From Nitrosopumilus sp. (GTDB taxonomy: Archaea > Thermoproteota > Nitrososphaeria > Nitrososphaerales > Nitrosopumilaceae): a stretch of 64,000 bases of DNA. Both the position numbers and the translations under genes were made by a program. The stretch spans positions 768,001 to 832,000 of the forward strand of contig OZ243974.1 of the NCBI GenBank assembly GCA_965214775.1, in the 5' to 3' direction. The first letter of the stretch is position 1, and the number at the start of each line of letters is the position of its first letter. Positions 9,914-51,115 of this stretch are shown here, piece after piece. The notes beneath the pieces are model-generated. The model made no database searches. It had not been told where the DNA came from and saw only the letters and a program-made list of their open reading frames with translations.

Positions 9914-11695
9914 ATGGCAGCGCAAGGCAGAATTGTTTGGGTCAGTGGCCCTGCAGTTAGAGCAGACGGAATGGCTGAAGCAAAAATGTACGAGACAGTC
10001 GTTGTCGGGGATTCTAAACTAGTCGGCGAAGTAATCAGACTGACCGGCGATGTCGCATTTATTCAGGTATACGAGTCAACAAGCGGATTAAAGCCAGGCG
10101 AGCCCGTAATCGGCACAGGCAACCCGCTTAGTGTCATGCTGGGTCCCGGGATTATCGGACAGCTTTATGACGGAATTCAGAGACCGCTAAGAGAACTGTC
10201 AAAGGCATCAGGTTCCTTTATTGGCAGAGGAATTACGACCACCCCTATTGACATGACCAAAAAATACCACTTTGTTCCCACCGTGAGTAACGGTGACAAA
10301 GTTGCTGCGGGAAACGTAATTGGCACCGTTCAAGAAACTGATTTGATTGAGCATCCAATAATGGTTCCGCCGGATCACCAGGGTGGAAAAATCACAAACG
10401 TTGTTTCAGAAGGAGACTATGACTTGGAGACTGAGCTAGCTACAACTGAGAAGGATGATGGGCAGACTGTCTCCCTTAAGATGTATCACAAATGGCCAGT
10501 CAGAAAACCAAGACCGTACAAGAACAGATACGATCCAACCGTGCCGCTTCTTACCGGTCAAAGAATTATCGATACCTTCTTCCCAATTGCAAAAGGGGGA
10601 ACCGGCTCCATTCCAGGGGCGTTTGGTACGGGGAAGACCGTAACGCTGCACCAGATTGCAAAATGGGCAGACTCCCAGGTTGTAGTTTACATCGGTTGCG
10701 GCGAAAGAGGCAACGAAATGACAGAAGTACTAGTCGAATTCCCACATCTCAAGGATCCAAGAAGCGGAAAGCCACTCATGGACAGAACCGTCCTTGTAGC
10801 TAACACCAGCAACATGCCGGTAGCAGCAAGGGAGGCAAGCATCTACACGGGTGTCACAATTGCAGAATATTACAGGGATATGGGCAAGGACGTCGTTCTT
10901 GTAGCTGACTCTACTAGCAGATGGGCCGAAGCGCTAAGAGAAATGAGCGGCAGGCTTGAAGAGATGCCTGCAGAGGAAGGCTATCCGTCATATCTTGCAT
11001 CAAGACTGGCAGAATTTTATGAAAGGGCAGGACGTGTCAGGGCAGCTGGAAGTCCGGATCGCGACGGTTCAGTCACCCTGATTGGCGCCGTATCTCCATC
11101 CGGTGGTGATTTTACAGAACCTGTCACTACTCATACCATGAGATTTATCAAAACTTTCTGGGCTTTGGATGCAAAACTGGCGTACTCTAGACACTATCCA
11201 TCAATAAACTGGATGAACAGTTACTCCGGATATCTTGCAGACATTGCAAAATGGTGGAGTGAGAATATCAGCGAGGAGTGGTTTAACATTAGAAGTGAGA
11301 CATATGGTGTCTTGCAAAGGGAAGACACGCTAAAAGAGATTGTCAGGCTCTTGGGTCCTGAAGCATTGCCAGACGAAGAAAAGTTGATTCTCGAAGTTGC
11401 AAGAATGGTAAAGATTGCTCTGTTACAACAAAACTCGTTTGACGATGTTGATACTTATTGCAGCCCAGAAAAGCAGTTCAGGCTAATGAAACTGTGTGTT
11501 GACTTTTACAAGAAAGGACAGCAGGCGCTCAAAGAGGGCGCGGCATTATCTGACATTCGTGAGCTGGGAGTTGTAAGCAGCTTGCTCAAAGCAAGAATGG
11601 ATGTAAAAGACGATGAAATGCCAAAACTGGATCAGCTAGACAAAGACATGCAAGAACAATTCAAATCAATCTCAGGAGTCAAGGTGCCAAATTGA
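9914..11695 (+). CDS. atpA: A/V-type ATP synthase subunit A
   Basis: GAFGTGKT Walker [20 protein letters not shown]. Confidence 0.98.
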
Positions 11696-41080: not shown

Positions 41081-42217
41081 TAGTATCCTCGACTACCAAT
41101 TGATCACAAAAAGGACAATTTTTTTCAACCAAAGGATCTAAGAGCTATTAGTCCCATATATACACATGAAAGGAAAGAAGGAATTACCGACGGGAACAGC
41201 GTTCCTGTACGGGATAGCAAGCAAGGACGAGCTTTTTAGGATGCACAAGTCCGAGAAGGACGCCAAGGCGGCAATCCGGCTCCTTGCATACCACATGAGA
41301 AAGTGCGGCGCGAGCATATATGATATTGCCGAGAAGCTGAGCAGGCCGTATGGAACCGTACGATACTGGCTGGTGCGTGCGCACAAGCATGGCCTGGAGG
41401 GCAGGTTTGACATAAAGCATGGCGCCCCGTGCAGGCTCGACAAGAAACAGCTTGAACGGCTGCGCGCAGACCTGATCAAGGGCCCGGACAACTGCGGCTT
41501 TAAGGCCACAACATGGACAGGGCCGCTGGTCATTGCCCACGTCAAAAAGAAGTTCGGCATCACGTATGCAGAAACGAGCATGTACGACCTGCTGCACAGA
41601 ATCGGCTTCTCATGCAGAAAGCCCAGGCCAAAACACCCAAAATCAGCCTCAGAATCCGAGAAAAAGGAGTTCAAAAAAAAAGCTAGGCAGAGCGCAAAGT
41701 ACTATTCAAAAAAGGGGTACACGGTAATGATAGGCGACGAGTCCATGTTCATACTGGGATGGAACGTCAAGAACAGCTGGTACCCCGTAGGAGAGCCGGT
41801 CTATACGCCCGTCAGCCTGTCTAGGAAGCGGTTCTATGTCATAGGGGCCCTCTCAAGAAACAGGTTTGACTATCGCTTTTACGAAAAGGCCAACACGGGA
41901 ACGTTCTACAAGTTTCTCAGGACACTGCGCCGCAAGTACGGCAAGGTGTTGTTGTTTGTCGACAACGCATCGTACCACAAGTCAGCAGAACTCAATAGAA
42001 AGATGGCCAAGTGGAACGGGGACGTGGTGCTAAAGTACCTGCCGCCGTACGCGCCGGAGCTTAACAACTCGGAGGGGCAGTGGCGCGGGTTCAAAAAGGC
42101 GACTTCAAACTGCCTTTACAAGACCGTCAAGGAGATGCAGAGATCACTGCGCAGTATGACGCGCAGGGGCGAGATAAAGGTGGTAAAGATGAACAAATGG
42201 CTGACGTAGATACTACG
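41081..42217 (+). mobile_element. IS630-family element
   Basis: Short inverted ends CGTAGTATC / GATACTACG; excision of this interval restores the protease frame. Confidence 0.8.
41166..42209 (+). CDS. IS630-family transposase, intact single frame
   Basis: GDES, VDNASYHKS, LPPYAPELNNSE. Confidence 0.92.
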   Translation: MKGKKELPTGTAFLYGIASKDELFRMHKSEKDAKAAIRLLAYHMRKCGASIYDIAEKLSRPYGTVRYWLVRAHKHGLEGRFDIKHGAPCRLDKKQLERLRADLIKGPDNCGFKATTWTGPLVIAHVKKKFGITYAETSMYDLLHRIGFSCRKPRPKHPKSASESEKKEFKKKARQSAKYYSKKGYTVMIGDESMFILGWNVKNSWYPVGEPVYTPVSLSRKRFYVIGALSRNRFDYRFYEKANTGTFYKFLRTLRRKYGKVLLFVDNASYHKSAELNRKMAKWNGDVVLKYLPPYAPELNNSEGQWRGFKKATSNCLYKTVKEMQRSLRSMTRRGEIKVVKMNKWLT

Positions 42218-42694: not shown

Positions 42695-43746
42695 TGTCTT
42701 ATATGGAAATTAGGTTCGCCTAAGATTTTGAGAAAAGCCAAGGAATACTTTACCCTTTACCGATCAAGAAAAAAGATGAAAAGACAGTACTTACAGAACG
42801 ACAGATAAGATACGCCACAAGACAGCGTAAGAAGGGCAGGACGCTCAAGGTAATAGCATCAGAGCTGGAGGTGACGCCACAGTACGTGGGCAGGCTTTGT
42901 GCCGAGTTCGAAAGAACCGGCGTAATACACGTGCAAAAGAGTCCCGGCAGGCCAGCATCGCCGCCGCCCTCAAGCGACGAGGTCCAGACTGTGCTTCGCC
43001 TGTACGCCGAGCAGGACATCGGTGTGGTTCGCACGGCTAAGCGTGCAAGGGAGCAACTGAATATAAGCTACGACTCTGTATACAGGATAATGAGTGAGAA
43101 CAAGCTGGTATCAAAGTCTGCTACAAGATCCGGACAGCGCAAGTGGCTGCGCTATGAACGCAAGTACTCCAACGCAATGTGGCACGTGGACTGGCACGAT
43201 ATGAAGGATCCGCGCCTGAGAGGGCTCAAATTAGTCACGTTTTTGGACGATTCATCCCGGTGTATCATGGCGGCACGGACGTTTGCCGAGGCCACATCAG
43301 AAAACGTGGTGATAACCCTCAGGGATGCCATAGACAGATTTGGCACGCCGGCTACCATACTGTCTGACAACGGCAGGTGTTTCAACGGCGGCCGTAGCAA
43401 GAAGAACATGCCACGCGAAACGTGGAAGCCGACTGCATTTGAGGCCGAGCTGCTGGACCGGGGCATCGGGCTGATAAACTCCAGGCCGTACCATCCGGAG
43501 ACCAACGGCAAGTTGGAACGGTTCCACGGCAGCATAGAGGCTGAGATCCGCCACTATGAGAGCTTGGATGCATACATCAAGTATTACAACGAGCGCAGGC
43601 TACACTTTGGGCTGGACATAGCCCACCGCCAGACACCCATCATGGCGTTCTCGGACAAAACTGCCACAGAAGCGATCAGGAAATCCGACCCAAAATGGAT
43701 GGAGAGGGACATCAATGAATAGCGGACATTATTTCCATATAACACA
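42695..43746 (+). mobile_element. IS481-family element
   Basis: TIR TGTCTTATATGGAAAT / ATTTCCATATAACACA. Confidence 0.85.
42871..43722 (+). CDS. IS481-family transposase (frame open from 42724, canonical start unclear)
   Basis: WHVDWHD, DDSSR, SDNG, PYHPETNGKLER, YNERRLH. Confidence 0.88.
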   Translation: MTPQYVGRLCAEFERTGVIHVQKSPGRPASPPPSSDEVQTVLRLYAEQDIGVVRTAKRAREQLNISYDSVYRIMSENKLVSKSATRSGQRKWLRYERKYSNAMWHVDWHDMKDPRLRGLKLVTFLDDSSRCIMAARTFAEATSENVVITLRDAIDRFGTPATILSDNGRCFNGGRSKKNMPRETWKPTAFEAELLDRGIGLINSRPYHPETNGKLERFHGSIEAEIRHYESLDAYIKYYNERRLHFGLDIAHRQTPIMAFSDKTATEAIRKSDPKWMERDINE

Positions 43747-43898: not shown

Positions 43899-44176
43899 TA
43901 CTTTGCATGCACGGTAGACTTTCAATCGGAATGTTTCGATCCGGTCGATTACGCATAAGGTCTTCTGCCTTTCTATGTACCGGAGCGATTTTTCCTCCAG
44001 TCTTTTCTTCACGTTTTTTGATCGGTGCAGCCTGAAATAATCCTTCAAAGCACGCCTGATCTTGGGCCGAACTAATTTTCGTATGATAGAGTGCCCAAGA
44101 TTACACAGAACCTTTCCCATCGCCAGAAAACTCTTGAAATTCCTTCAACTTTTTATTCTCAGCCCGGCATGATGCA

Positions 44177-45229
44177 TTGATGAGTAAAACAGAAAACCTT
44201 CTTGAAAAAATTCAAGTTCTCATTACAGATAACAAATTCAGACAGGCAATCACGGCTTGTGATCACATCTTAAAGACAAACAAAAAAAATTTTCAAGCAA
44301 ATTTTAACAAGGCGAATCTTTTGGCAGAGATTGGGTTCCACAAAAAATCATTATCGTATTACAACAAAGCGTTAAAGATAATCCCGGATGAACCTTTAGC
44401 CTTGTTCAACCTTGGTACAACTTTGTATGATTTGGACAGGTATGATGAAGCTATACGCATGTTTGACAAAGTGATAAAAATTCAACCAAAAAACGTTGAT
44501 GCGATATGCAACAAGGCAAATACGTTTGTGGCTCTTGGAAAACATAAACAGGCAATGTCAAACTATGATAAGGCCTTGAAAATATCCCCGGATGACATTG
44601 TAATTCTTAACAACAAGGGAATTGTTTTTGCTGGAAAGTCAAAGCACGAAGAGGCAATAAAATGCTTTGATGCGGCGCTGAAAATAAATCCGGATGACAT
44701 GTATTCCTTGTGCAACAAAGGAAATTCTTTGGCAGAACTGGAGGATTTTGGCGAAGCTGCAATATGTTTTGAGTCAGCCTTGGAGATCAACCCTACGGAT
44801 TATGACGTATATTTCAGGTTGGGAGTTGCCTATGCAAATACCAATCGGCCAAAAGAGGCAATTCTCTGCTTTAACAGGGTTCTAAAAAAAGATCCTTCCC
44901 ATACTGATGCGTTGATAAACAAGGGAATTGCCTACATTGCATTAGAAAAGTACAAACATTCTGTTCAGTCTTTTGAGAAAGCACTTGCAATTGACAAGCA
45001 GAATACAGATGCCATGTATCATAAGGCACAATGCCTAGCAGAGATTGGCAGGCATGCTCAAGCAGTTTCCCTGCTTTGCAAGATTGCTGCAAAAAAAGAA
45101 AAAACCCATGATCACCATAATCATGAGCATGAACGTTTGTCTCTAAAAGAAAAAATTCTCAAGGATGCCCATTTTGCAAAGGTGAAAAAAGAAGAAAGCT
45201 ATTCATCCCTTATACAGAATCTTCATTAG
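44177..45229 (+). CDS. Tetratricopeptide repeat protein
   Basis: About eight NKG..L..A...F..AL.I.P repeats; short His-rich patch near C-terminus. Confidence 0.9.
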   Translation: MMSKTENLLEKIQVLITDNKFRQAITACDHILKTNKKNFQANFNKANLLAEIGFHKKSLSYYNKALKIIPDEPLALFNLGTTLYDLDRYDEAIRMFDKVIKIQPKNVDAICNKANTFVALGKHKQAMSNYDKALKISPDDIVILNNKGIVFAGKSKHEEAIKCFDAALKINPDDMYSLCNKGNSLAELEDFGEAAICFESALEINPTDYDVYFRLGVAYANTNRPKEAILCFNRVLKKDPSHTDALINKGIAYIALEKYKHSVQSFEKALAIDKQNTDAMYHKAQCLAEIGRHAQAVSLLCKIAAKKEKTHDHHNHEHERLSLKEKILKDAHFAKVKKEESYSSLIQNLH

Positions 45230-45668
45230 TTGAAATTTGGTTTGGGCTAGACGGAATGCGTTTTCCATTTGGGGATATTTTCGGATCTCCAAGAATTGAA
45301 GAAAGCGAATTTGTAAATTCGTCACTCATATGATGTTCCATGCCACAGACAATTTTGTCATCCGGTTTGATCTTTAGATGATTTACCATCAATACTTCTA
45401 GCAATCTGCTTTTTCTTACAATGCCTGCCCCAATTTCTTTTCCTTGGTCTGTCAGCTGAATATCCAGTTTGGTGTACTTTGCAAATCCCATTTCCTCAAG
45501 TTTTTTCATCATCTGCACCACGCTTGGCTGCCTGATTCTTAGCATGTTGGCAATTGTGCTTATTCTGATCGGTTTGTTGTTTTCATTTGTCAGCCACATT
45601 GCCTTTAGATACATTTCAACGTGCTCTTTTGGGGCGGTTCCCACATAGAGTTTTTCCTCAGTTGTCAT
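45210..45668 (-). CDS. DtxR/MntR-family metal-dependent regulator
   Basis: EMYLKAM, PSVVQMMKKL, RLLE, CGMEHHMS, SPNGKRIP. Confidence 0.9.
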   Translation of the reverse strand: MTTEEKLYVGTAPKEHVEMYLKAMWLTNENNKPIRISTIANMLRIRQPSVVQMMKKLEEMGFAKYTKLDIQLTDQGKEIGAGIVRKSRLLEVLMVNHLKIKPDDKIVCGMEHHMSDEFTNSLSSILGDPKISPNGKRIPSSPNQISTNEDSV

Positions 45669-45915
45669 CTTTGCAGTCCGTTGCCTCCTCGTTAATCTTT
45701 AGAATATAGGTAGACCTGACATTTTTAATCTTTCGAATCTTCCACGTAATTGTCTCATTAAGCTCCTCTAGCGTTGATGCCTCTACTTTAACAAGAACGT
45801 CATATGGCCCGGTAATGCATTGTGTCTCCGTGACCTGGGAAATTTCTTTGAGATGTGAGATTACATCTTTTTCATTGTTTTCGGTGCAGTTTAACAATAC
45901 AAATGCTGCTGGCAA
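45658..45915 (-). CDS. Lrp/AsnC ligand-binding (RAM) domain protein
   Basis: AFVLLN, ITGPYDVLVKVEA, KIRKIKNVRST. Confidence 0.88.
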   Translation of the reverse strand: MPAAFVLLNCTENNEKDVISHLKEISQVTETQCITGPYDVLVKVEASTLEELNETITWKIRKIKNVRSTYILKINEEATDCKDDN

Positions 45916-46070
45916 TTTTTTCCTCCGTCAGTTTTTGACATTGTTTTTGCTTTGTTAGAACTCACTCTTGCGACTGTTTTTTGCGCATCTGCCAATGTAA
46001 CAGGCTCGGATTTGATCATGTTGAATATTTTTTTGACACTATGATCATATGCAATCCATATTTCTTTCAT
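45891..46070 (-). CDS. 59-aa paralog of the Cys-free DUF5679-like protein (not in ORF track)
   Basis: MKEIWIAYDHSVKKIFNMIKSEPVTLADAQK.. aligns with MTKEWVAYDVKARKKVKMVDPRLVTLKNGK; overlaps the Lrp start. Confidence 0.55.
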   Translation of the reverse strand: MKEIWIAYDHSVKKIFNMIKSEPVTLADAQKTVARVSSNKAKTMSKTDGGKNCQQHLYC

Positions 46071-46260
46071 GCCAATACTGGGTTTTGAGTATATTAATTA
46101 TTTTTCTTATTGTATTAAATATTGATAAAATCAGCATAATTTTTAATAACTAGTGAGTAATATTTCAGGTAGAAACCGAAATGACTGCCATTCCTACGCA
46201 TTGCCAACCACATGCATTTTACACGACAAGAATTTCAGTTTTTAACATGCCGGTGAAACA

Positions 46261-46458
46261 ATGAAATTAACCAAGCAAGAAGATCAAGACGAGAAAAATG
46301 TCAATGAGATCAGAATTGAGATAAACGATTCATCTTCAACCCATAACAACAATTTTGCCATTACTCTAAGATCAAAAAAAGTGGATGTAGACAAGTTACT
46401 CCCCATGGCAAAAGAATGGGTAATGGAACACAAACAGAAAACCTGGCTTGAAAAATAA
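46261..46458 (+). CDS. Small hypothetical protein
   Basis: 65-aa ORF, ATGA-coupled to a 27-codon uORF at 46181-46264. Confidence 0.55.
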   Translation: MKLTKQEDQDEKNVNEIRIEINDSSSTHNNNFAITLRSKKVDVDKLLPMAKEWVMEHKQKTWLEK

Positions 46459-46597
46459 TCTCTCAGTTATCCTGCCTTTCAAGTCCAAGGATAAACGCCA
46501 AAAAAATTCAAACCGGGTTAAAAAACTGCATGTACAATGATTTTTGAATGTAAAAAAGAATGATTGATGGTTTCTTCTCTTTTGTAAGAGATTGATC

Positions 46598-46786
46598 TTA
46601 TTGAGACTTGAAAATTTTTGCATCTTCAGGACCGATGATCCTAAAGAGCGAAATTCCAGTCTCTGCACTTGTACCCTTGAGAGCCATTTTGCCATTCTTC
46701 AGGGTCACAAGTCTAGGATCTACCATCTTGACTTTCTTTCTTGCTTTTACATCATAAGCAACCCATTCTTTAGTCATACTTTTCAT
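46598..46786 (-). CDS. DUF5679-like small basic protein lacking the four zinc-ribbon cysteines
   Basis: AYDVKARKK..M..P..VTLKNGK.ALKGTSAETG..LFRI versus recalled consensus AYCxKCxxK..M..P..VTxKNGR.AxKGxCxxCG..MFRI. Confidence 0.7.
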   Translation of the reverse strand: MKSMTKEWVAYDVKARKKVKMVDPRLVTLKNGKMALKGTSAETGISLFRIIGPEDAKIFKSQ

Positions 46787-46976
46787 TCGTGTATGTGTAT
46801 ATTAAAACAATGCATAATTAATATTAACAATTATTAAAATTAAAATAGTTCTTAATAAAATATAAATACTCCGTGTACCGTAAAAGAACATAATGCCATG
46901 CTTCAACCACATGCAGCCCTGACATACAGATGCTCATTTTTCGCATGGCATTATCTAACAATTTGGATGTAACAAA

Positions 46977-47387
46977 ATGGATGAAAAATCAAGATATCAC
47001 GTATATAAACTAGAACGAGAAAAGGATCTCTTTTGCAGTGTTCTAAACGTCAGTGGGACAGGCAGCGCAAATATTTATCAAATTGAAGATTCTGATTATT
47101 TCTATTCGGCATATTACTTTTCTGATGGCCATCTTACTGATATTAATCTCTATTATGTCAGAAGCAAGATATTACAAGACACGATTACTCGTAAAGGCAA
47201 TGTTATAAAATTTGAACCGGGTACCGGAGAATGGAATTCTCATCAGGGCGAACTAAAAGACATCTATTGCTGGCTGTTTGTTCTTAGAATCATCTCTTCA
47301 TCATCTAAAGAGATTAAGGAAATTTACAAGCTTGAGGAAGAATATGAAAGAAAGTACGGAATTAGACAGTTGGCCTTGACAGAATAG
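46977..47387 (+). CDS. Hypothetical protein
   Basis: 136-aa ORF downstream of TATAAATA (46861-46868) and a structured leader. Confidence 0.65.
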   Translation: MDEKSRYHVYKLEREKDLFCSVLNVSGTGSANIYQIEDSDYFYSAYYFSDGHLTDINLYYVRSKILQDTITRKGNVIKFEPGTGEWNSHQGELKDIYCWLFVLRIISSSSKEIKEIYKLEEEYERKYGIRQLALTE

Positions 47388-47389
47388 GA

Positions 47390-47614
47390 GTGAAAGTCAT
47401 GTCCCCAGACAGGAAAACAATATACTTTGATCATAAAGGAGATTTTGAGATTTTGGCTGATGACGAAACTTTCCAGGTAGACATGCAATCAATTCAAAAA
47501 ATAGTGTTTACAGATCACAAAAACAAGATACGATACTTGTTCTCAAAGTTTAGAACCGAGATGATAGACGATGATCTAATTCAAATTGACAGCACCGGTT
47601 TACAAAGCAACTAG
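47390..47614 (+). CDS. Hypothetical protein
   Basis: 74 aa, starts 2 nt after previous stop. Confidence 0.55.
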   Translation: MKVMSPDRKTIYFDHKGDFEILADDETFQVDMQSIQKIVFTDHKNKIRYLFSKFRTEMIDDDLIQIDSTGLQSN

Positions 47615-47983
47615 TTTTACCGTATCCATTTTTTTATCAGTAAGAAATCCTTGTGTAATTGCTTGGATCTTTTTTGAATCTCCATCCAAGAAAAACATCT
47701 CCATGCATCTTTCTCCATCAATTTTGTTGTGAAGATGTGTTTTAATCAGATCCTCATAATCATGCTTTATTCCTGCAACTTGATCATCGTGCTCATCTGC
47801 ATGGACCACAATCAACACTGCATTCTGCTTTCCTTTCAATTCTCTTTTTTGTTTCTCCTCTTGTACAAAAGTTCTGATTCCGGCGCGAATAATTTCAGAT
47901 CTCCCGGTGAATCCCATGGAACCCTGCAGTTTGTCAAGTTCCTTTAAAATCCCATCATTAAGAGAGATTGAAACGATTGCCAA
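47600..47983 (-). CDS. NikR-family regulator (RHH + NikR_C)
   Basis: IVSISL..RSEIIRAGIR RHH; THLH..RCME metal site. Confidence 0.88.
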   Translation of the reverse strand: MAIVSISLNDGILKELDKLQGSMGFTGRSEIIRAGIRTFVQEEKQKRELKGKQNAVLIVVHADEHDDQVAGIKHDYEDLIKTHLHNKIDGERCMEMFFLDGDSKKIQAITQGFLTDKKMDTVKLVAL

Positions 47984-48141
47984 TGGCTGGAATGTTATTA
48001 ATTGTTATTTAAACCTAATATCATTTCTTAATAATTTTAACAAAAACCAAGCCTATTGGATTATTAACATAAAAATTCGCTCTTTCAGTTTTTTATTAAG
48101 TTTATATTATATTATTAATAACCATCCCACAACGTGATAAA

Positions 48142-49446
48142 ATGAAAAGCTTGTCAATTGCTGCCATAGGTGTTGGAATCGCCGCAGCTATAGCTGTTGC
48201 AATTGCAGTGACAATGTCAGGAGTTTCTGACAGTCCAGAACTTTCTGAAAACTACATGGGCAAGACAAATGAAGCTGACATGTCTTTGCAGGAAAGCAAG
48301 ATACGGGTTCTGGCCTCTTTTTATCCATATTATGAATTTACAAAAAATGTAGCAGGTGATTCTGCAACAGTTGTTCAGTACATGCCATCCGGAGTAGGAG
48401 CACATGATTGGGAACCAAGACCCCAAGAGATTCAGGCGTTGAAAGATGCGGATGTTTTTGTGTATAATGGATTAGGAATGGAGCCTTATATCGATAACAT
48501 GATTGATTCAGGCGAGTTTGACAATGTTTTGTTTGTTAAAGCCTCTGAAGGAGTTGAACTGATAAAACCTGAGGACGGACATGATGAGCACGCAGAAGAA
48601 GAGGCACATGATGAGCACGCAGAAAACTTTGCAAGAGAGATAGAGCACGTAATAGAAGAATTTGAACACGGTCACATTGATGCAGTCCAGGCACTTGGCG
48701 AGATAGAAGAGATTCTGCACGAGCATGAAGGAGACGGGCATGATCATGGAAATGAAACTATTGAGAGAATTGAGTCAGTAATGCATGAAATTGAGGACGG
48801 ACATATGAGTGCAGAAGAAGGACTAGAGAAAATCCACCATGTTGTTTTAGAAATCAAGGAGGACGGACATGATGAGCACGCAGAAGAAGATGAACACGGA
48901 CATCATCATCACGACTTTGAGTTTGACCCGCACATCTGGTTGGATCCAGTTTTGGTAAAGCAACAAGTAAACAATATTCGAGATGCACTAATTGAGGCAG
49001 ATCCACAAAACACAGAACAGTACAAACAAAATGCCATGGCATACAATGAAGAACTAGACCAATTAGACATGAACATAAAGTCGTCCTTGGCATCATGCAA
49101 GAAAGACACCTTTGTTCCATATCATAATGCATTCACATATCTTGCCGAAAGATATGACCTCAAAGTTATGGCTCTTGGCGGATTAGCTCCGGATTCAGAG
49201 GCAACTGCTGCAGAGATTTCAGAATTTATCGACTTTGTAAGGGAAAATGACGTAAAGGTAATTTTTAATGAAGAACTAATTGATCAAAGACTAGCAGAGG
49301 TCATTGCAGAAGAATCGGGCGCAACAGTAATGCTGTTTAGCCCATTAGAGGTGCTAGCACCTGAAGAATTAGGGAAAAACATATCATACATCGACAAGAT
49401 GGAACAAAATATGGATTCCCTGAAGGTGGCCCTTGAGTGTCAATGA
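48142..49446 (+). CDS. znuA: Zn/Mn ABC transporter solute-binding protein with long His/Glu insert
   Basis: AHDWEP, DPHIWLDP, HNAFTYLAERY; repeated EDGHDEHAEE units. Confidence 0.88.
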   Translation: MKSLSIAAIGVGIAAAIAVAIAVTMSGVSDSPELSENYMGKTNEADMSLQESKIRVLASFYPYYEFTKNVAGDSATVVQYMPSGVGAHDWEPRPQEIQALKDADVFVYNGLGMEPYIDNMIDSGEFDNVLFVKASEGVELIKPEDGHDEHAEEEAHDEHAENFAREIEHVIEEFEHGHIDAVQALGEIEEILHEHEGDGHDHGNETIERIESVMHEIEDGHMSAEEGLEKIHHVVLEIKEDGHDEHAEEDEHGHHHHDFEFDPHIWLDPVLVKQQVNNIRDALIEADPQNTEQYKQNAMAYNEELDQLDMNIKSSLASCKKDTFVPYHNAFTYLAERYDLKVMALGGLAPDSEATAAEISEFIDFVRENDVKVIFNEELIDQRLAEVIAEESGATVMLFSPLEVLAPEELGKNISYIDKMEQNMDSLKVALECQ

Positions 49447-50243
49447 CAAGTGTGCTAGAAGTTGACGATCTTGTCATAGGCTACGATGATCACATAGCAG
49501 TAGACAAAGTCAGCTTTGATGTCCAAGAAGGGGACATACTTGGCATTGTGGGTCCTAACGGCGCAGGCAAAACAACACTGTTTCGAGCAATTTTGGGATT
49601 GCAGAAATATTCTGGAAAGATCAAGATGTTTGGGTTGGAAGATTCAAAGTATCATTCACTGCTACATATGATCGGATATGTGCCACAAAAGGTAATTTTT
49701 GAGCCAAACTTTCCTGCAACGGTTTATGATGTTGTGTCAATGGGCATCATATCTAAGAAAAAACTTGTCAGGGGGGCAAAGTTTGTCCAGCAGTGTGGCT
49801 GCTGTTGGAATCAAATTTACAGCAATCTTGGAGACAACAACAAGGTCATGACAGCGCTAAAAACCGTAGGTCTTGAATCTCTAAAAAACAGAAGAATTGG
49901 GGAACTCTCAGGCGGCGAATTACAACGCGTCTTTATTGCAAAGTGCCTTGTCAAGGATCCGTTGTTGCTAATTCTAGACGAGCCCGTAGCAAGCGTGGAC
50001 GTTGAATCACAAAGTAAATTCTATGATCTAATAAAGAAAATCAACCAAGAAAACCAAATCACAGTCGTTTGGTCATCACATGACTTGGATGCGATATCAA
50101 AGTATGCAAGCAGAGTCGCATGCATGAATAAAAAACTGTTTTTCCATGGGGAGAAAGAGGAATTCTTTTCAAACAAGGATCTTCTAAAAACATATACCGA
50201 GTCATCAATGCAAATGCACATGCGTCATCATGGTTACCATTAG
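49437..50243 (+). CDS. znuC: Metal ABC transporter ATP-binding protein
   Basis: GPNGAGKT, GYVPQK, LSGGELQR, LDEP, SHD. Confidence 0.88.
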   Translation: MSMTSVLEVDDLVIGYDDHIAVDKVSFDVQEGDILGIVGPNGAGKTTLFRAILGLQKYSGKIKMFGLEDSKYHSLLHMIGYVPQKVIFEPNFPATVYDVVSMGIISKKKLVRGAKFVQQCGCCWNQIYSNLGDNNKVMTALKTVGLESLKNRRIGELSGGELQRVFIAKCLVKDPLLLILDEPVASVDVESQSKFYDLIKKINQENQITVVWSSHDLDAISKYASRVACMNKKLFFHGEKEEFFSNKDLLKTYTESSMQMHMRHHGYH

Positions 50244-50260
50244 CAAATCAGGCAGAAAAG

Positions 50261-51115
50261 ATGGTCCTTGAAGCCCTGTCTTATGGATTTGTTCAGAAGG
50301 CACTAATTTCGGGCATTGCTGTTGCGCTAATCTGCTCTTTTATGGGAACGTTTCTTGTATTGAGGCGCTACGCTTTATTTGGGGACGGAATTGCCCATGT
50401 GGCCTTTGGCGGCGTGTCAGTGGGATTGTTCCTGGGGGTGTTTCCAATTTGGACTGCATACATGGTTTCAATATTGGGAGGAATAGGACTGCAAAAACTC
50501 CGACAAAGTACAAAGATTTCGGGAGATGCTGCCGTAGCTGTCGTACTGGTTACCGGATTGTCTTTGGGCGTCATCCTGGTAAGCTCGTCAGGAGGCTTTT
50601 CAGTGGATTTGTTCAGTTTCTTGTTTGGAAGTATCCTGTTGATCAGCAACGAGGATACAGTCATAATTCTAACGATCAGCACGGGAATCATCGCAACGCT
50701 TGTTGCATTACGAAAACAATTCCTGCAAATTACGTTTAATGAAGAACAGGCAAGAATCTCAGGATTGCATGTTACATTGCTAAACTACGCATTCGTAGTA
50801 CTGGCAGCCGTAACGGTAGTAACATCTATGAGACTGGTTGGAATCTTGTTGATATCAGCATTAGTTGTAATTCCCAACATCAGTGCAATGATGTTTGGCA
50901 AAGGATTCAAGCAGACAGTCGGAATATCGATGTCAATTTCAGTCATCTCAGTAGTAGCCGGAATACTTTTGTCATATTATTACAATCTTGCGCCATCCGG
51001 AATCATTGTCATGGTTGCAGTTGCAATTTTGGTAGGAATTGTCCTAGCCAGATCTGCTGGCTTGATTTCGAAAATAAGTACAAGGAAAAAATCCGAAACC
51101 ACGCACAGCGTCTAA
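50261..51115 (+). CDS. znuB: Metal ABC transporter permease (ABC-3)
   Basis: VLRRYALFGDGIAHVAFGG, FLFGSIL, VGILLISAL. Confidence 0.88.
   Translation: MVLEALSYGFVQKALISGIAVALICSFMGTFLVLRRYALFGDGIAHVAFGGVSVGLFLGVFPIWTAYMVSILGGIGLQKLRQSTKISGDAAVAVVLVTGLSLGVILVSSSGGFSVDLFSFLFGSILLISNEDTVIILTISTGIIATLVALRKQFLQITFNEEQARISGLHVTLLNYAFVVLAAVTVVTSMRLVGILLISALVVIPNISAMMFGKGFKQTVGISMSISVISVVAGILLSYYYNLAPSGIIVMVAVAILVGIVLARSAGLISKISTRKKSETTHSV

Follow-up and report, generated by a model that had tools for sequence, protein, structure and literature searches.

A 64,000-nucleotide (nt) stretch of the genome of Nitrosopumilus sp. (GenBank assembly GCA_965214775.1, contig OZ243974.1, positions 768,001 to 832,000 of the forward strand), here called the window, contains a bidirectional promoter cassette twice, as diverged tandem copies. 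In each copy, unit 1 and unit 2, a mini-gene on the minus strand is divergent from small genes on the plus strand (orf65 in unit 1, orf136 and orf74 in unit 2). An exact inverted repeat, TTATTAA-N14/15-TTAATAA, occurs in this genome only at the promoters of unit 2 and of znuA, the first gene of a metal importer. The locus is interpreted as part of a NikR-family-controlled metal-limitation regulon of the Nitrosopumilaceae, probably for zinc, that would employ Cys-less stand-ins for a core zinc-ribbon protein. This reading, to which a probability of about 0.5 is given, builds on the observed homology of the mini-proteins, loss of zinc ligands, purifying selection, conserved synteny, and uniqueness and conservation of the repeat.

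A preliminary description of this DNA, made from the letters alone, had placed open reading frames (ORFs) at 45891-46070 (-), 46261-46458 (+), 46598-46786 (-), 46977-47387 (+) and 47390-47614 (+), and all five are present. The flanking genes were also named correctly, since domain searches find a DtxR-family protein, an Lrp/AsnC ligand-binding domain (RAM), a NikR protein (ribbon-helix-helix domain, RHH, plus NikR_C), and ZnuA. The two-unit architecture that had been pointed out is real. Collinear direct repeats at offsets of 699-709 nt span the mini-gene 5' ends, the TATA-like boxes, a 12-mer, and 37 nt of spacer at 76% identity. Because the repeats are collinear at these offsets, units 1 and 2 are a diverged tandem duplication and not a chance resemblance. 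In locus L012 (L-numbers denote loci of relatives or of the genome itself), a lone unit-2-type gene heads a RAM-DtxR gene pair and faces orf136, an arrangement that is probably the unduplicated state.

The half-sites of the inverted repeat are centered 21-22 bp apart, about two helical turns of DNA. A scan of the 2,833,656 bases of the genome (gaps of 8-22) found the exact repeat twice only, at 46831 and 48093, and allowing 1 mismatch added no N14 or N15 site. Unit 1 holds a degenerate copy whose orthologous sites are exact in L009 and in L095, a sister genome of the same genus. Other clusters of the half-site 7-mer in the genome are unrelated to metal genes. Separately, three tandem 16-nt units containing CTTAATAA lie upstream of a 465-amino-acid (aa) gene at G000:C1:1332780-1332860.

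The distribution of the repeat was compared across 80 loci from a search of a genome collection, grouped by protein matches (orf136, NikR, ZnuA, orfX or orf65) and without regard to the motif. Seventeen exact N14-15 sites, and none at 13 other spacings, lie in the 9 module loci (147,446 bases, GC content 0.35), whereas the 71 loci that lack module proteins (987,226 bases, GC content 0.33) contain no exact N14-15 site and 1 at another spacing. Allowing up to 1 mismatch gives 68 matches, with several loci being duplicate views of one genome and some rows being unpublished (L107, L111, L112). Sites precede ZnuA homologues or lie in nikR-znuA spacers in the window, L009, L010, L012, L092, L100, L101 and L113, in L033, L059, L076 and L044, and, with 1 mismatch, in L095 and L103. 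Between the mini-gene and orf136, the site is exact in the window, L009, L010, L095 and L100 and has 1 mismatch in L011 and L012. It is found before the unit-1-type gene (exact in L009, 1 mismatch in L010 and L092) and is exact in the orf65-Lrp spacer of L095, where the unit-1 gene is deleted. Further sites lie in mini-gene-orf65 spacers, in orfX-orf65 spacers, and before orfX. Additionally, two exact sites of L009 lie between a COG0523 GTPase gene (cobW + CobW_C) and cbtB/cbtA, in the same-genus genome G224 an exact site is found 12 nt ahead of the start of the COG0523 orthologue, and one site of L010 precedes a cation-efflux (CDF) gene. The repeat fits a shared predicted operator of metal-gene promoters with NikR-type geometry. 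A 1-mismatch site in L009 (9864-9891) is positioned between orfX and a gene for a TATA-binding-protein paralog (9945-10505), which might belong to the regulon.

The genes around the repeat form a conserved metal-homeostasis neighborhood in relatives, as the preliminary description had supposed in placing the block inside a metal locus. Homologues of orf136 are present in 19 of 400 other genomes of the family and, when the window's own genome is counted, in 7 of 27 genera. In 13 of the 19 loci a mini-gene is found no more than 1.5 kb from orf136, and in 15 NikR or ZnuA is. Four of the 19 genomes are unpublished, and the corresponding figures for the 15 published ones are 10 and 12. In the more distant loci L033 and L059, the genes orfX, orf136, a ClpP-like gene, and those for ZnuA, ZnuC and ZnuB follow one another on one strand, divergent from the mini-gene and a pentapeptide-repeat gene behind it, and L076 shares the core of orfX, orf136 and the ClpP-like gene. 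The ratios of nonsynonymous to synonymous substitution rates (dN/dS) are 0.08-0.16 for unit 2, 0.07-0.23 for orf136 and 0.05-0.09 for orf65; these low values indicate real genes, and unit 2 is under purifying selection. Neither orf65 nor orf136 matches a Pfam or NCBIfam family. The AlphaFold2 model of the orf136 protein has a mean predicted local distance difference test (pLDDT) score of 64.6, Foldseek finds no match to it in the PDB at E up to 1e-3, and the best score in the Atlas is 0.75. A glyoxalase-like half-fold was considered for this protein and rejected, the best VIA match (Z 5.0) being below the level of chance arrangements. Full-text literature searches found no publication on this module.

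The unit-2 protein belongs to a conserved Cys-less branch of the DUF5679 zinc-ribbon family. Its start is most likely the second ATG, as in its orthologues, which corrects the start in the ORF list and leaves a TATA-like box about 24 nt upstream (read by eye). The protein matches PF18930 (DUF5679) with E 8.6e-5 and 23 bits, under the 27-bit gathering cutoff of Pfam, and a PF18930 match is precomputed for some of its close homologues. In the alignment, both CxxC knuckles of PF18930 are missing from unit 2: the CxxC...CxxC columns hold D, A, S and T in each of 18 Cys-less sequences (unit 2 and 17 aligned homologues), so that all four zinc ligands are replaced. The genome itself encodes three canonical DUF5679 proteins, each with two CxxC knuckles. 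Unit 2 is 47% and 38% identical to the genome's own 4-Cys copies, and the family profile recovers all three (E 6.8e-12 to 1.2e-7). Unit 2 is of the same length class as the PF18930 microproteins and has the same K/R-rich pattern between the knuckles, but it lacks the four Cys, carries an additional C-terminal helix, and scores below the Pfam cutoff. A protein search yields 58 clusters of unit-2 homologues. The Cys-less clade comprises 542 confirmed stretches in the genome collection and takes three forms: short unit-2-like proteins, 77-aa proteins with a CxCxxxC tail, and domains embedded in proteins of 320-400 aa.

The 4-Cys form is a core gene of the family. It is present in 40 of 40 other genomes of the family and lies directly upstream of the gene for aIF2-beta in 26 of 29 loci (L115-L143; in the genome itself, L001 990-1647). 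Its universality and this adjacency hint that it is tied to translation or to core information processing. Publications on DUF5679 contain passing mentions only.

The unit-2 protein has a net charge of about +7 (counted from the translation), and its AlphaFold2 model (pLDDT 84.6) consists of four strands and a C-terminal helix. The best full-length structural match is a weak one to Cren7, a crenarchaeal chromatin protein with an SH3-like fold (Foldseek E 0.28, probability 0.96, TM-scores 0.55/0.61; VIA Z 4.1, root-mean-square deviation 3.0, 53 residues aligned), and VIA also gives weak matches to the zinc ribbons of NrdR (Z 3.5) and L44E (Z 3.5). Like Cren7, the protein is small, basic and beta-rich, but the scores are weak and a search of the mini-protein profile against PDB sequences gave nothing under E 0.76, making Cren7 a lead only. 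A literature search on Cren7 and Thaumarchaeota returned nothing useful. The idea that the mini-protein is a detached SH3-like (FeoA-type) third domain of DtxR was also rejected, since Pfam gave no family except DUF5679 and no DtxR chain was among the best 50 VIA matches listed.

The unit-1 protein is related to unit 2, and its gene is decaying. The preliminary description had aligned the two mini-proteins, and the alignment holds. A single BLASTP comparison gives E 1e-5 with 22% identity over 54 residues, which is weak alone, but full-length unit-1 orthologues align throughout with unit 2 and with 4-Cys DUF5679, confirming the homology. Its label for both proteins, Cys-free and zinc-ribbon-like, suits unit 2 as a Cys-less relative of DUF5679, but Cys-free is not strictly true of unit 1, which ends in a CxxHxxC stretch. 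Full-length copies of this second paralog are found in front of RAM-DtxR in L009, L010 and L092; they are acidic to neutral (net charge about -1 to -4, counted) and have dN/dS of 0.10-0.21 among themselves. The window copy has dN/dS of 0.67-0.81 against L010 and L092 and 0.23 against L009 (dS saturated), is diverged in its C-terminal half, has no Pfam hit, and is missed by the family profile at E up to 1. A simple frameshift was ruled out by stops in the other frames. In L095, only a few codons of the ORF are left, but orf65 is still there with its leader. Unit 1 of the window is a relic of the second paralog under relaxed selection. It had been proposed that the unit-1 protein heads the Lrp-DtxR operon; a mini-gene does stand directly before RAM-DtxR in L009, L010, L012, L092 and L101, but the window copy is decaying and the ORF is gone in L095. 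The RAM gene overlaps the start of the DtxR gene by 11 nt, and all NCBIfam matches of the DtxR-family protein fall under their cutoffs.

Table 1. Features of the duplicated cassette and its surroundings, in window coordinates
Feature	Position	Strand	Remarks
Transposase gene, DDE_3	41166-42209		about 50% GC, island border
Transposase gene, rve integrase core	42871-43722		about 50% GC, island border
Tetratricopeptide-repeat (TPR) protein, His-rich C-terminal tail	44177-45229	+	Pfam TPR; homologues adjoin the module in L009, L010, L012, L076
DtxR/MntR-family metalloregulator, 152 aa, without SH3-like third domain	45210-45668	-	Pfam Fe_dep_repress + Fe_dep_repr_C
Stand-alone Lrp/AsnC ligand-binding (RAM) protein	45658-45915	-	Pfam AsnC_trans_reg, E 3.6e-12
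Unit-1 mini-gene, decaying second (acidic) DUF5679-like paralog	45891-46070	-	heads RAM-DtxR operon in relatives
Degenerate inverted repeat, 7-N14-7	46122-46149		unit 1; 2 mismatches in left half-site (read by eye)
12-mer copy 1, CAACCACATGCA	46205-46216	+	orf65 leader
orf65, small protein	46261-46458	+	no family; GGTGA Shine-Dalgarno-like motif before start
Unit-2 mini-gene, Cys-less DUF5679-like, 59 aa from second ATG	46598-46777	-	ORF-list start 46786
Inverted repeat TTATTAA-N14-TTAATAA	46831-46858		between divergent unit-2 TATA boxes; exact, fixed spacing kept in orthologous spacers
Hairpin / inverted repeat	46890-46954	+	arms 46890-46901 and 46943-46954, 12-bp stem, 41-nt loop
12-mer copy 2, CAACCACATGCA	46904-46915	+	start of hairpin loop
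orf136, usual divergent partner of mini-gene	46977-47387	+	conserved, 26 homologues
orf74, small protein	47390-47614	+	3' end overlaps convergent nikR-like gene by 15 nt
NikR-family regulator, candidate binder of inverted repeat	47600-47983	-	RHH PF01402 E 2.1e-5, NikR_C PF08753 E 2.4e-13
Inverted repeat TTATTAA-N15-TTAATAA	48093-48121		encloses znuA TATA-like box; exact, conserved before ZnuA homologues in relatives
znuA, znuC, znuB, ABC (ATP-binding cassette) metal importer	48142-51115	+	Pfam ZnuA E 3.2e-82; ABC_tran + ABC-3 in orthologous loci
CopC + CopD + Vgb-lyase/SGL-like beta-propeller fusion, 934 aa	51545-54349	-	directly after znuB, other island side

The NikR-like protein is the most plausible binder of the repeat. 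It is the only regulator that accompanies the sites across clades, and the repeat lies in the nikR-znuA spacer of the window and of relatives, near both the candidate regulator's own gene and the metal importer. In PMC7055735, E. coli NikR is described as binding GTATGA-N16-TCATAC and as having a high-affinity nickel site made of His87, His89, Cys95 and His76'. In an alignment with the E. coli (1q5v) and P. horikoshii proteins, the full set of four nickel ligands is lacking: His76, His87 and Cys95 are kept, His89 is replaced by Lys, and an extra His is found at 85, two residues before His87 (counted from the alignment). Every NCBIfam NikR model scores under its cutoff. The locus resembles the NikR regulons of E. 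coli (nikABCDE) and H. pylori in that an RHH + NikR_C regulator is encoded divergently from a metal importer and in that the half-sites lie about two helical turns apart (7-N14/15-7 here, 6-N16-6 in E. coli). It differs from them in the half-site sequence, in the ZnuA-type ABC importer that takes the place of NikABCDE, in the replacement of one of four nickel ligands, and in the presence of Cys-less zinc-ribbon paralogs and a COG0523 gene in the regulon. Literature searches, with some papers judged by title and abstract, found nothing on a NikR regulon in these archaea or on Nitrosopumilus NikR and zinc.

The metal of the regulon is most likely zinc, which an altered NikR would sense. The ZnuA protein carries a long His/Asp/Glu-rich insert. 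According to PMC11672702, bacterial Zur regulons combine zinc uptake, COG0523 proteins, and Cys-less (C-) paralogs or DksA2. The His-rich insert of ZnuA, the COG0523 gene with an operator, and the Cys-less paralogs match this make-up and therefore favor zinc.

From these observations we infer the following course of regulation. The metal-loaded NikR-family repressor would bind TTATTAA-N14/15-TTAATAA and shut off znuABC, where the site covers the znuA TATA box, as well as the divergent promoter of unit 2, where it abuts the TATA box of the orf136 transcript. Metal shortage would derepress the regulon. Unit 2 would then give a leaderless mRNA for the 59-aa basic protein, which would keep the DUF5679 zinc-ribbon-like fold with the four zinc ligands lost and may stand in, without needing metal, for the core 4-Cys DUF5679 protein, which probably binds nucleic acids. 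In the opposite direction, unit 2 would give an mRNA for orf136 and orf74 with a conserved 12-bp stem-loop at its 5' end, running toward the nikR-like gene. Unit 1 is what remains of an acidic second paralog, which in relatives stands first in the RAM-DtxR operon, with the same predicted operator in front. The term metal-starvation module, used in the preliminary description, is supported as far as a module is concerned by synteny and by the genome-unique repeat common to the unit-2 and znuA promoters, but the response to metal is a prediction; a look-up of sequencing runs returned none of RNA for this organism.

The same description had proposed an altogether new system, which overstates the case, since metal uptake, a COG0523 GTPase and Cys-less paralogs are the logic of bacterial Zur regulons. 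The system is best seen as a possible archaeal, NikR-family-controlled variant of the bacterial zinc-sparing regulon. Like the C-/C+ pairs of ribosomal proteins and DksA2 described there, unit 2 is a Cys-less paralog of a small zinc-ribbon or zinc-finger protein, and the Cys-containing paralog is encoded in the same genome in three copies. The Cys-less gene also adjoins ZnuABC, a COG0523 GTPase is included in relatives, and the exact repeats of unit 2 and znuA would be a regulator-type site shared with zinc-uptake genes. Unlike the Zur regulons, the present one belongs to an archaeon and to a NikR-family regulator instead of Zur/Fur, DUF5679 has no known function, and a second Cys-less subfamily exists beyond the regulon. 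Ammonia-oxidizing archaea seem to use no Zur here. Tentatively, a NikR-family repressor with an altered metal site would be the zinc-limitation sensor. Its regulon could, in a broad version that is somewhat doubtful as a whole, take in ZnuABC, the COG0523 chaperone, a nested RAM-DtxR pair, several small proteins, and two kinds of Cys-less replacement for a universal zinc-ribbon protein that would bind nucleic acids and is encoded beside aIF2-beta. It is equally tentative that the orf136 arm is in addition under a new 5'-terminal structured RNA, maybe antisense to the regulator gene.

Several observations weigh against the zinc-sparing interpretation. The regulator is NikR-like and not Zur, with three of four nickel ligands kept, and the half-sites consist of A/T only. 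In distant loci, the operator is found at znuA/nikR, and in the mini-gene spacer it is found only in L059 (up to 1 mismatch); the mini-gene spacers of L033, L045, L076, L101, L102 and L105 have no site at up to 1 mismatch. In the genome itself, a COG0523 gene was not found with the L009 query, and PF02492 gave one 229-aa match of the cobW/HypB/UreG family and two weak ones. The 77-aa Cys-less subfamily with the CxCxxxC tail is located in an unrelated place, without the operator, in most of the 80 loci, including most Nitrosopumilus and Nitrosarchaeum loci (L013-L088). The Cys-less state is old and found beyond the module locus, and the existence of this subfamily without the operator means that loss of Cys alone does not imply zinc sparing. 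Additionally, the mini-gene is co-transcribed with the regulators in L012, L099 and L101, which fits a regulatory rather than a substitute role. The covariation in the leader hairpin, described below, is modest, with 22 of 500 shuffles reaching the observed values.

An alternative that keeps the regulon but assigns it to nickel or another divalent metal, and makes the mini-proteins small DNA- or regulator-binding accessory factors that act with RAM-DtxR, is considered unlikely. Membership in the NikR family and the retained nickel ligands speak for nickel, and the operators at cbtA/cbtB of L009, which encode probable cobalt transporter subunits, speak for another metal. The transporter, however, is of the ZnuA family with a His-rich insert, COG0523 genes carry the operator, and the fourth nickel ligand (His89 of E. 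coli NikR) is Lys. An accessory role draws on the position of the mini-gene directly before RAM-DtxR in the loci named above and on Cren7, a DNA-binding protein, being the best, though weak, fold match, but RAM-DtxR persists where the unit-1 mini-gene has decayed or been deleted. A complex prediction for DtxR, RAM and mini-protein (L012 set) gave no support for contact among them.

The leader of orf136 begins with a hairpin about 26 nt after the plus-strand TATA-like box at 46860-46868 (read by eye). Its covariance model, R1, scores 74.3 bits in the window, the only plus-strand match in the genome. Nine copies were found in 7 genomes, plus 2 in metagenome contigs; the model matches 3 of 150 other genomes of the family, and no hairpin was seen in the more distant module loci. 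In the nine copies, 94.4% of cells pair, there are 2 compensatory pairs, and one pair is U-G in 3 copies. The arms are near-invariant and the loop varies from 34 to 47 nt. The preliminary description had reported a conserved leader in both units with a common 12-mer. The 12-mer CAACCACATGCA is indeed in both leaders and nowhere else in the window, but the leader of unit 1 shares only this and not the hairpin, as the covariance model misses unit 1. The 12-mer has only 2 exact copies in the 2.83-Mb genome, and L012 and L095 retain 11 of its 12 bases ahead of orf65. At up to 1 mismatch, the window is expected to hold 0.49 copies; two or more turned up in 8 of 100 shuffles. An Rfam scan of 44000-49000 gave 6 matches at E up to 10; all score far under the gathering thresholds, and none falls on the plus-strand hairpin (46888-46956). 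A leader peptide was considered and rejected, since the short ORFs from the 5' arm are not alike among the copies: they are read in different frames, run for about 3 to 42 codons, and end at different stops.

The hairpin is best read as a putative 5'-terminal RNA stem-loop that would act in stability, translation or antisense control. In the window and L009, the orf136-orf74 transcript runs toward the nikR-like gene and overlaps it by 15 nt (47600-47614 in the window), and this convergence would allow antisense interference. No ORF follows the element in L010 and L092, where it borders directly on the 3' end of the nikR-like gene. Convergence of orf136 or of a bare hairpin on the nikR-like gene was also seen in other genomes. 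A live but less probable alternative is that the leader works as DNA, its 12-bp arms binding a regulator such as the DtxR-like protein across the start of orf136 and the 12-mer being a remnant of the duplication. The near-invariance of the arms beside a variable loop, their being identical also in one contig where orf136 has diverged to 63% identity, the elements that lack a downstream ORF, and the weak covariation are all compatible with binding to DNA. An arm spacing of 34-47 nt would, however, be awkward for one rigid oligomer, the U-G pair in three copies and the two compensatory pairs keep plus-strand pairing, and the element begins at the expected transcript start.

The module is accessory and patchy among genera. 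The island in which it lies has a GC content of 35-42% versus 47% genome-wide and is bordered by transposase genes. The bordering transposases and patchy spread suggest that the module moved horizontally. That the locus merely holds lineage-specific small genes in an AT-rich mobile island, with the repeat as a by-product of AT-rich promoters, would agree with the GC content, the two adjoining transposase genes and the A/T-only half-sites, but it is already disfavored as very improbable by the count of exact N14-15 sites (none in 987 kb of control loci at 33% GC, 17 in 147 kb of module loci), by the lack of module-locus sites at other spacings, and by synteny across 7 genera.

Ammonia-oxidizing archaea drive nitrification in the sea and in soils where trace metals are scarce. 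To our knowledge, their zinc and nickel homeostasis is almost unstudied, and a literature search combining these archaea, zinc and ZnuA returned unrelated work only. The predicted operator provides a sequence-level regulon and ties orf136, orf74, orf65, orfX and the Cys-less DUF5679 protein to metal limitation. It gives a first functional lead for the widespread DUF5679 family and suggests that the zinc-sparing strategy of Cys-less paralogs arose in archaea with a different family of regulators. Metal stress might be traced in environmental metatranscriptomes by the transcripts of the module genes.

Some further observations concern the distant loci and the DUF5679 family. Two genes that the window lacks are found in the more distant module loci (L033 3313-3873, L076 8622-9191, L045 7892-8293): one for a ClpP-like protease after orf136 and one for a pentapeptide-repeat protein after the mini-gene. 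The 77-aa CxCxxxC gene is followed by a gene for a conserved 157-aa protein in 47 loci, with several small CxxC proteins encoded around it. The 77-aa-type copy of the genome itself (L005 1468-1720; G000:C1:2565954-2566116) is interrupted by a frameshift and lacks some of the conserved residues, and a 44-aa Cys-rich ORF (L005 1149-1283) lies just upstream of it. DUF5679 domains are also fused terminally or internally to low-complexity proteins of 320-400 aa, with the Cys kept in L002 (1486-2445, minus strand) and Cys-free fusions of the same size in L043, L049 and L051.

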